From a virus (lineage: Duplodnaviria; Heunggongvirae; Uroviricota; Caudoviricetes): a stretch of DNA of 4,475 nt. The DNA is taken from IMG/VR virus record IMGVR_UViG_2654587685_000013; one strand, given 5' to 3'. The position numbers were made by a program. Every line of letters begins with the position of its first letter. Positions within the stretch are counted from its first letter, which is position 1. Shown here piece by piece: positions 3,001 through 4,475 of this stretch.

Positions 3001-4475
3001 GCTGATAGTGTTTTTCATGTAACCAATGTTACTACCAAGTGATGTTGCTATGGTTGACATTGTAATGTAACTATTGTTACCCTCCTGCTCGAAATAACAG
3101 GAGAGTTTTATGTTCAAAGATGATGTTCTGCGCTATTTCAAAAAAAAGCGACTAGTAGCTGAGGCTCTTGGAATTTCACATGTGGCTGTTGTGCGGTGGA
3201 AAGCAGTTATTCCCAAACTTCGCGCAATGGAACTGGATGAAATTACTAACGGTGAATTGAAATACAACCCAGAACTTTACAAGAAGCAGGATAGCACCTC
3301 GAACGAAGGAAAGAATGATTCATGAAAATCAAGCATGAACACATCCGCATGGCGATGAATGCCTGGGCGCATCCGGACGGCGAGAAAGTACCGGCTGCAG
3401 AGATTACCAAAGCGTATTTCGAGCTGGGAATGACGTTCCCGGAACTGTATGACGATAGCCATCCGGAAGCCCTGGCTCGCAATACCCAGAAAATTTTCCG
3501 CTGGGTAGAGAAAGACACCCCTGATGCAGTTGAAAAGATTCAGGCGTTGTTACCAGCGATCGAAAAGGCAATGCCACCTTTGCTGGTGGCCAGAATGCGC
3601 AGCCACAGTTCAGCTTATTTTCGGGAGCTGGTGGAGATGCGGGAACGACTGGTGAGAGACGCTGATGATTTTGTCGCAGTGGCGATCGCTGGTTTCAATC
3701 AGATGAATCGTGGTGGCCCGGCAGGAAATGCCTTGGTGATGCACTAAAAGCACGGTGTTCGGAGTTTTTTATGAGCAGCAAGCTTCATGGTCTTGTCTGG
3801 GAAGGGTGTGCCTTCACCGGCATGATCTTATCCAGGGTGGCAGTTATGGCTCGCCTTGCAGATTACAGCAATGACGAAGGTGTGTCATGGCCTGCAGTGG
3901 AGACCATTCGTCGTCAGATTGGGGCAAAGAGTGAATCAACGGTTAAAGCTGCGATAGCAGAACTGGAAAAGAACGGCTGGCTGACGAAGGAGGAACGTAA
4001 GGTCGGTGGGCGTAATGAAAGCAATATCTACCGTCTTAATGTGGAAAAACTCGAAGCAGCAGCAGCGGCGGCGCGTGAGGCATATAAACCGAAAAGAAAA
4101 ATTAGCCAGGCAAAAAATGACCCGTCAAATATTACCCCCTCAACGGTTAACCCATCAAATTTTGATGGATCAACCGTTGATAAAAAACAGTCGGATAGGG
4201 GGGCGATGGTTGGCCCCGATCCGTCAGTATTAAAACCTGATCCGTCAGATAAAAGATCTTTTCGTCCGGAAGCTTCGCAACCGGACATGCAGACGGCTGA
4301 ACAGGATTTTTTAACCCGACACCCTGACGCGGTTGTGTTCAGTGCGAAAAAACGCCAGTGGGGTAGCCAGGAAGATTTAGCGTGTGCGCAGTGGATCTGG
4401 GGGCGAATCGTGAGTCTTTACGAGCAGGCCGCCAGCGATGATGGCGAGATTTCGCGACCGAAAGAACCCAACTGG

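Follow-up and report, generated by a model that had tools for sequence, protein, structure and literature searches.

The 4,475-nucleotide stretch of Caudoviricetes DNA analysed here (IMG/VR record IMGVR_UViG_2654587685_000013; hereafter the window) contains two overlapping rightward genes that encode a P22-type Cro and the CII-like transcription factor YdaT. The two genes meet at a YdaT-box, which marks a mosaic joint common to many immunity types, and a -10-like hexamer at a fixed distance from this box suggests the real location of the P_RE analogue, the leftward promoter from which YdaT would switch on the repressor gene. The open reading frame (ORF) listing and family scans identify the window as a lambdoid immunity region, and it very probably holds the lysis/lysogeny switch of a Qin/Rac-like lambdoid prophage that is common in E. 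coli. Database names such as 'YdaS_toxin' and 'toxin YdaT family protein' mislead here, since the locus is a plain phage immunity switch. As a further example of such a switch the locus adds little, because this reading is already in print and has been tested; the position of the promoter next to the box is possibly a new point.

The gene pair encodes a P22-type Cro and YdaT

The two genes are as follows.

3110-3325, + strand: cro (gene 1), encoding a 71-aa P22-Cro/DicC-type helix-turn-helix (HTH) protein, called YdaS in the initial annotation; stop codon TGA at 3323-3325, Shine-Dalgarno (SD) sequence AGGAG at 3099-3103
3322-3747, + strand: ydaT (gene 2), encoding a CII-like transcription factor of 141 aa that combines a POU-like HTH domain with a tetramerisation helix at its C-terminus; start codon ATG at 3322-3324

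The initial annotation had placed a YdaS/YdaT pair at the cro/cII position, divergent from the repressor gene across the operator region. Reading of the sequence confirms both ORFs and their ATGA overlap at 3322-3325. The pair does diverge from the minus-strand repressor gene, with two perfect GTAAC-N4-GTTAC repeats between them, and it occupies the cro/cII slot between the repressor and the O/P replication genes, the O-like gene at 3771 marking the cro/cII/O order. The family placement stood for gene 2 and fell for gene 1, since profile searches recover YdaT (39.7 bits on PF06254, cut-off 21) but not YdaS (18.5 bits on PF15943, cut-off 30).

Gene 1 passes the P22_Cro family PF14549 with 59.4 bits (cut-off 30.2) and shares 47% identity with P22 Cro (E 1e-18; PDB 1RZS, E 9e-12) and 39% with DicC of the K-12 prophage Qin. 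Besides its low PF15943 score, it gives no BLASTP alignment to Rac YdaS, which itself scores 107.7 bits on that model as a control, and the YdaS label was rejected. The DicC label was rejected as well, with 56.1 bits on NF007282 against a curated cut-off of 130. Rac YdaS and P22 Cro each pass both PF15943 and PF14549, which shows that the two Pfam families overlap and makes the YdaS proteins Cro relatives themselves. In its context, gene 1 is the first gene of the rightward operon and is divergent from a C2/CI-type repressor, and the operators co-vary with the cro type.

Gene 2 matches PHROG 163 'CII-like transcriptional activator' (4e-46), the structure of the E. coli O6 YdaT homologue (PDB 3C4R; E 7e-89, residues 1-141, ~95% identity) and that of CP-933P YdaT (PDB 8BT1; E 8e-82, residues 2-141, 86% identity). 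Its identity to Rac YdaT is 32-34%. Residues R60 and W61 are invariant in a seven-sequence alignment; they correspond to the conserved Arg and Trp of the recognition helix (Arg60 in CP-933P, R57/W58 in Rac), whose roles have been described (PMC9986795, PMC11879457). No Phage_CII match to gene 2 was obtained in the Pfam scan at E <= 0.01. YdaT is a functional analogue of CII and not a CII homologue, on which the papers agree, and 'activator protein cII' is a name that the gene already bears in phage records. The solved homologues settle the folds of both proteins (86-95% identity for YdaT, 47% for Cro), and, by analogy with the homologues studied in the literature, YdaT of this locus would bind DNA, form tetramers and activate a promoter.

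The reinterpretation of such pairs as Cro and a CII-like protein was first proposed and then shown experimentally for homologues. Jobling 2018 (PMC5917428) regarded YdaS/YdaT as Cro/CII equivalents by genetic context, citing Casjens 2003. For CP-933P, Jurenas 2021 (PMC8630535) found that PaaR2 and YdaS cross-regulate P_R and P_RM, that YdaT activates a leftward P_RE-like promoter with no effect on P_R, P_RM or P_L, that YdaT is not toxic, and that the pair is not a toxin-antitoxin module. Prolic-Kalinsek 2023 (PMC9986795) solved YdaT as a POU-like HTH tetramer and footprinted it on TTGATT-N6-AATCAA at the ydaS/ydaT border, the footprints reaching ~35 nt to each side of this site, O_M, at high protein concentration. 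Wons 2025 (PMC11879457) footprinted Rac YdaT on ATGATTCATGAAAATCAA; binding to this box left ydaT expression unchanged and raised racR steeply, an effect that was lost in a box mutant. In the same work, Rac and CP-933P YdaT (~30% identical) cross-activated each other's boxes, and Rac YdaT also bound the racR-ydaS intergenic region and the promoter of the host gene rcsA.

The YdaT-box is the left edge of a recombining ydaT module

3315-3332, no strand: YdaT-box ATGATT-CATGAA-AATCAA (ATGATTCATGAAAATCAA), identical to the DNase-footprinted Rac YdaT-box (PMC11879457; L002 2178-2195)

The repeat (A/T)TGATT-N6-AATCAA that characterises a cognate site at the ydaT start is present at 3315-3332 and differs from CP-933P O_M by one base (PMC9986795). 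The ATGA overlap at 3322-3325, comprising the cro stop and the ydaT start, sits within the 6-nt spacer of the box.

The comparison covered 79 loci: the window plus 78 from viral contigs, each encoding a YdaT with 94-99% identity to the one in the window. The genes upstream of ydaT fall into at least 10 sequence classes and three Pfam families: three classes are P22_Cro-type, several are YdaS-type and one is HTH_17-like. The cro/ydaT joint always lies at the box. The overlap is 4 nt at 52 loci, where Cro ends in ...DS* (GAT TCA TGA), and 17 nt at 25 loci (L005, L015, L019 and others), where cro arrives in the other frame, reads through GATTCATGAAAATCAAGCATGA and ends in ...IHENQA*. The remaining two loci have a 1-nt overlap and a 22-nt gap. 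In E. coli UMNF18, the spacer change C3321A creates TAATG and a 1-nt overlap. The conserved ydaT 5' end supplies stop codons in both non-ydaT frames.

The box also coincides with a change in divergence. Across the repressor, operators, cro and box, the relatives L001, L007 and L008 have 0-11 differences from the window over ~1030 nt, and their ydaT body has 22-61 differences over 415 nt (5-15%). Of seven matching phage records, five align from window position 3316-3317 onwards and two from 3266. The constant position of the joint, the step in divergence and the edges of the phage matches together mark the box as the left boundary of a ydaT module, which recombines with a variety of immunity modules. 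The ATGA overlap is then a by-product of the box lying at this edge and is not specific to the locus, as its presence at 52 of the 79 loci demonstrates. The translational coupling claimed in the initial annotation may exist, as the 4-nt overlap by itself would suggest.

A candidate P_RE lies next to the box

3288-3296 (-10 hexamer 3293-3288), - strand: TGcTATCCT, the predicted extended -10 element of a P_RE-like promoter that would face leftward and depend on YdaT, from comparison with relatives

The predicted P_RE would start at ~3281, with the box centred at about -42.5, and its transcript would run antisense to cro into the repressor gene. The prediction comes from 11 left-flank classes, which share at most 60% mutual identity and carry cro genes in different frames. 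All 11 have TAnnnT on the antisense strand 20-21 nt from the box, while the other 83 offsets yield only 13 occurrences in the 11 classes together. The TGn element of an extended -10 precedes each of the five weak hexamers (TATCCT, TAACGT, TAGCCT, TAAGCT and TAACTT) and none of the six others (TATGAT in three classes, TACAAT, TACGAT and TAGTTT), five of which are nearer to the TATAAT consensus (4-5 of 6 positions).

Five divergent homologues have the same arrangement of box and TAnnnT, making 16 of 16 with the flank classes:

Klebsiella phage ST405-OXA48phi1.2: YdaT 56% identical
Klebsiella phage Kp4882-1: YdaT 32% identical
Pectobacterium phage ZF40: YdaT 30% identical, box intergenic
Lambdoid phages mEp237 and HK639: ~37% identity over the alignable part, box-like repeat inside a longer CII-like gene

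In mEp237 (L171 1168-1185) and HK639 (L172 1147-1164), the repeat ATGATAAATCGCAATCAA or ATGATTTACCAGAATCGC falls within a CII-like gene annotated as 180 aa long; the first ATG of the repeat encodes Met in the frame of that gene, and the TAnnnT is 20 nt away and antisense. In these two phages the gene may have been annotated with a start that is too far 5', or the box may be part of the coding sequence.

On balance we lean, by a modest degree, towards the view that YdaT-family loci in general have a class II-type P_RE next to the box, centred at about -41.5/-42.5, in which the box replaces the -35 element and the TAnnnT, 20-21 nt away, provides the -10. Such a promoter departs from the models for Rac, where PracR4 is placed ~190 bp away, and for CP-933P, where the start falls in O_M. 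If it is real, the YdaT module would bring along its activator site and start codon as well as a stop codon for whichever cro joins it, and only a few -10 positions would need to be kept in otherwise unrelated cro 3' ends. This box-proximal architecture is one of only two points of the locus that might repay follow-up.

Operators and repressor

The remaining elements of the switch lie upstream of cro.

2253-2281, - strand: P_L-like leftward promoter, TTGACT (2281-2276), 17-nt spacer, TGtTACCTT; relaxed promoter scan, perfect operator and P_R-like architecture
2256-2269: operator GTAACAAGTGTTAC, a perfect repeat covering the P_L spacer and -10
2313-2338, - strand: intrinsic terminator 3' of the repressor gene, AACCCGCA-loop-UGCGGGUU followed by UUUUU; RNA fold -14.3 kcal/mol, z = -2.8
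2344-3018 (224 aa) or 2344-3060 (238 aa, PGAP start, L001), - strand: CI-like immunity repressor gene, with a P22 C2-like HTH N-terminal domain and an S24 (LexA-like) C-terminal domain
3019-3032, no strand: operator GTAACCAATGTTAC, abutting ATG 3018 and placed like O_R3 across the likely P_RM and the start of the repressor gene; no change in L001, L007 or L008
3054-3083, + strand: P_R-like promoter, TTGACA 3054-3059, 18-nt spacer, TGtTACCCT with the -10 at 3078-3083; relaxed promoter scan
3067-3080: operator GTAACTATTGTTAC, a perfect repeat covering the P_R spacer and -10

P_R, P_L and P_RE were called from a relaxed scan and comparison with relatives, not from a strict scan, and the terminator was called from its fold. 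Perfect GTAAC-N4-GTTAC occurs three times in the window against 0.01 expected: two of the repeats (3019-3032 and 3067-3080) are located between gene 1 and the repressor, and the third (2256-2269) lies downstream of the repressor terminator. In the relaxed scan P_R and P_L have a common layout, TTGACx, 6-7 nt and GTAAC-N4-GTTACCyT. Substitutions in the relatives near the operators all fall outside them, and C3082A in L008 improves the P_R -10. Three GTAAC-N4-GTTAC repeats are found at all 14 loci with the cro type of the window, and not one such repeat at the 65 loci with other cro types and the same YdaT. This linkage is the best available evidence that the Cro and repressor of the window use GTAAC-N4-GTTAC, and on these comparisons they probably do. 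The P22 operators (TTAAG-N4-CTTAA; L175 820-900) share the 5-N4-5 geometry and the TAA...TTA core and differ in the outer half-site bases; a P22-like operator geometry matches the P22-like repressor HTH and Cro.

The repressor scores 60.2 bits on HTH_3 and 61.2 bits on Peptidase_S24. It matches lambda CI (3BDN, E 1e-13) and the N-terminal domain of P22 C2 (E 3e-12), and its N-terminus scores 81.7 bits on the DicA model. Of the hallmarks of the self-cleaving LexA/CI (S24) proteins, it has the domain, the Ala-Gly cleavage site (QAG, lambda A111-G112) and the catalytic Lys (TLKKV, lambda K192). It lacks the catalytic serine: EGDAM aligns to lambda EGNSM and puts Ala, encoded by GCG at ~2609-2607, at the position of lambda Ser149 and LexA Ser119. 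The change is kept in every window-type repressor seen, and such a repressor is predicted to be unable to cleave itself. Induction may then require an antirepressor, or may ignore SOS. The missing serine bears on the induction mode of such prophages and may also repay follow-up.

The operator at 3019-3032 holds a -10-like hexamer, TAACAT (3031-3026, found by eye), which would put a start near 3018 and give a leaderless mRNA, as in lambda cI and paaR2. AGGAGG at 3086-3081 is 20 nt from the ATG at 3060, too distant for a normal SD sequence. The 14-codon extension between 3018 and 3060 has three amino-acid changes and no informative synonymous change among the relatives; the extension variants, S10G and A5V, are all non-synonymous.

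A model for the switch and its alternatives

We then propose a mechanistic model. The CI-like repressor, through its P22 C2-type HTH, would bind three GTAAC-N4-GTTAC operators, at the P_L -10, at the P_R -10 and at its own start. P_R would transcribe cro, ydaT and then the O-like and P-like replication genes, and the P22-type Cro would occupy these operators too and turn off the synthesis of repressor. Tetrameric YdaT would bind ATGATT-N6-AATCAA, which straddles the cro stop and ydaT start, and would switch on a leftward promoter, antisense to cro and directed into the repressor gene, by which repression would be established. This promoter would adjoin the box, with its -10 TGcTATCCT at 3296-3288 and the box centred at about -42.5, where class II activators bind, and the spacer CATGAA would provide the start codon of ydaT as well as a stop for any cro brought in by recombination.

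Several points weigh against parts of this model. Published models put the YdaT-dependent promoter elsewhere, with Rac PracR4 ~190 bp from the box (PMC11879457) and the CP-933P start drawn within O_M (PMC9986795), and the conserved hexamer might instead be part of the weaker YdaT sites that flank the main one in the CP-933P footprints. A strict consensus promoter/terminator scan detected no promoter between cI and cro or near the box, and it missed the repressor terminator. The repressor could start at either 3018 or 3060, and P_RM is a tentative assignment. Operator binding by this Cro and this repressor would follow from the linkage only. As to coupling, the junction mRNA fold has no special structure that would enforce it (z = 0.42), and an SD-like AAGGA lies 11 nt before the ydaT ATG.

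YdaT could be CII-like and yet act on a promoter that is not beside the box, either deep in cro, as assigned for Rac PracR4, or within or upstream of the box, as assigned for CP-933P, with TAnnnT being a secondary site or something else. The CP-933P footprints, which at high protein concentration reach ~35 nt beyond O_M in both directions, would agree with this, as would weak reverse-promoter candidates in the window at 3202-3172 and 3302-3274. However, a YdaT-dependent start was mapped in none of PMC8630535, PMC9986795 and PMC11879457, and the Rac and CP-933P reporter fragments all include the box-proximal hexamer. Moreover, cro is unrelated between classes, so a promoter inside it would have to arise separately each time, whereas the box, the 20/21-nt interval and TAnnnT recur in 16 of 16 cases with a compensating TGn. 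We consider a promoter away from the box possible but doubtful. It is unlikely that YdaT is mainly a repressor, roadblock, autoregulator or host-gene regulator whose binding at its own start limits P_R transcription into ydaT, O and P. The box does cover the ydaT start, Rac YdaT does bind the racR-ydaS intergenic region and the rcsA promoter, and the structural paper uses the word 'repressor' (PMC9986795). Yet binding at the Rac box left ydaT unchanged and raised racR steeply unless the box was mutated, CP-933P YdaT activated P_RE and left P_R, P_RM and P_L unaffected, and a -10-like hexamer kept at constant spacing on the antisense strand would be expected if YdaT activates a promoter, but not if it acts as a roadblock.

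It is highly improbable that the pair forms a type II toxin-antitoxin module in which YdaT would be the toxin and its upstream HTH partner the antitoxin, even though the names suggest it (YdaS_toxin and YdaT_toxin in Pfam, 'toxin YdaT family protein' in PGAP) and both proteins of Rac are toxic on derepression or overexpression (PMC11879457, PMC5700377, PMC5700373). Gene 1 is a P22 Cro homologue, and YdaT belongs to a family with a solved DNA-binding POU-like HTH tetramer (PMC9986795). CP-933P YdaT, 86% identical, was reported to be non-toxic (PMC8630535), and the toxicity of Rac YdaT is explained by rcsA activation (PMC11879457). The pair also sits in the cro/cII slot between the repressor and the O/P genes. 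YdaT proteins 94-99% identical are joined at the box to partners of at least 10 classes, which represent three Pfam families, and this argues that the partner is not cognate and that the pairing expected of a toxin and its antitoxin is lacking. The Cro and CII-like roles that the initial annotation preferred to toxin-antitoxin function are thus upheld by the P22 Cro homology, the 86% identity to CP-933P YdaT, the exact Rac box and the many partners.

Prophage context

Of 5426 complete E. coli genomes, 699 (~13%) contain positions 2300-3800 at >=80% coverage. The closest complete genome is 98.5% identical over 2300-3800 and has the region in a prophage beside ompW, with the gene order int-xis-exo-dicB-ydfC-repressor, then divergently cro-ydaT-O-like-DnaC-like...Q. 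The flanking genes in the window are listed below.

3771-4475, + strand: 5' part of an O-like replication initiator gene that continues past the window end; PHROG 391 'replication initiation O-like' (3e-67), PHROG 11896
494-2061, - strand: leftward early operon of ydfC-like 1843-2061, a 124-aa ORF 1446-1820, DicF 849-900 and dicB 494-682; L001 annotation, Rfam and PHROGs

In L001 a DnaC-like ATPase gene follows 3' of the O-like gene. On the other side, the P_L-like promoter is predicted to drive the ydfC, DicF and dicB operon. The small RNA DicF is full-length (849-900, - strand; Rfam RF00039, 70.8 bits, cut-off 48) and lies between the ydfC-like gene and dicB, a Qin-like arrangement. Between ydfC and DicF there are two convergent ORFs of unknown function with an 11-nt overlap, 1235-1456 (+ strand) and the 124-aa ORF at 1446-1820 (- strand), with matches to PHROG 7249 (8e-46) and PHROG 6937 (4e-81); some relatives (L007) have ydfA and ydfB there instead.

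Comparison with known systems

CP-933P (Sp12) of E. coli O157:H7 resembles the window in its YdaT (86% identical), a box one base off, an O-like gene next in order, a divergent repressor and an ATGA overlap of the cro stop and ydaT start inside the box (published primers; CP-933P-like locus L009). It differs in its repressor, PaaR2, which is carried with the paaA2-parE2 toxin-antitoxin genes, whereas that of the window is an HTH+S24 CI-like protein. Its cro is of the YdaS family (PF15943, 46 bits) and not P22_Cro-type, and it is without GTAAC-N4-GTTAC operators.

Rac (racR-ydaS-ydaT, K-12) has the identical 18-bp box with the ydaT ATG in the spacer, the same first eight codons, MKIKHEHI, and a TATGAT hexamer 20 nt from the box in antisense. 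In contrast, its YdaT is 32-34% identical and toxic via rcsA, its repressor is RacR, its true YdaS has no BLASTP match to gene 1, and its ydaS ends 22 nt before ydaT, so there is zero overlap.

Qin (dicA-dicC-ydfX, K-12) is the nearest K-12 counterpart of the whole region, in a decayed state. Gene 1 shares 39% identity with DicC, the YdaT-like protein YdfX is truncated and has 37% identity, the leftward operon has ydfC, DicF and dicB (ydfABC-dicF-dicB in Qin), and the N-terminus of the window repressor matches the DicA model. Unlike the window, Qin has a DicA without the C-terminal domain, a truncated ydfX, a degenerate box and intergenic palindromes of the form TGTTAG-N6-CTAACA.

P22 (PDB 1RZS, 1ADR, 2R1J) has a Cro 47% identical to gene 1, a C2 that matches the repressor HTH and 5-N4-5 operators. 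The outer operator bases differ, being TTAAG/CTTAA in P22 and GTAAC/GTTAC in the window. The gene after cro starts MELTSTRKK in P22, where we take it to be c1, a gene of the lambda CII family, and MKIKHEHI in the window.

With lambda CI/Cro/CII the window shares the gene order and logic, including an activator expected to be tetrameric, whose site lies at the cro/activator junction, and a predicted antisense, repressor-directed promoter. However, the YdaT of the window has no Phage_CII Pfam match, and YdaT acts as a 222-symmetric tetramer on an inverted repeat, whereas CII acts on direct TTGC repeats flanking the -35 (PMC9986795).

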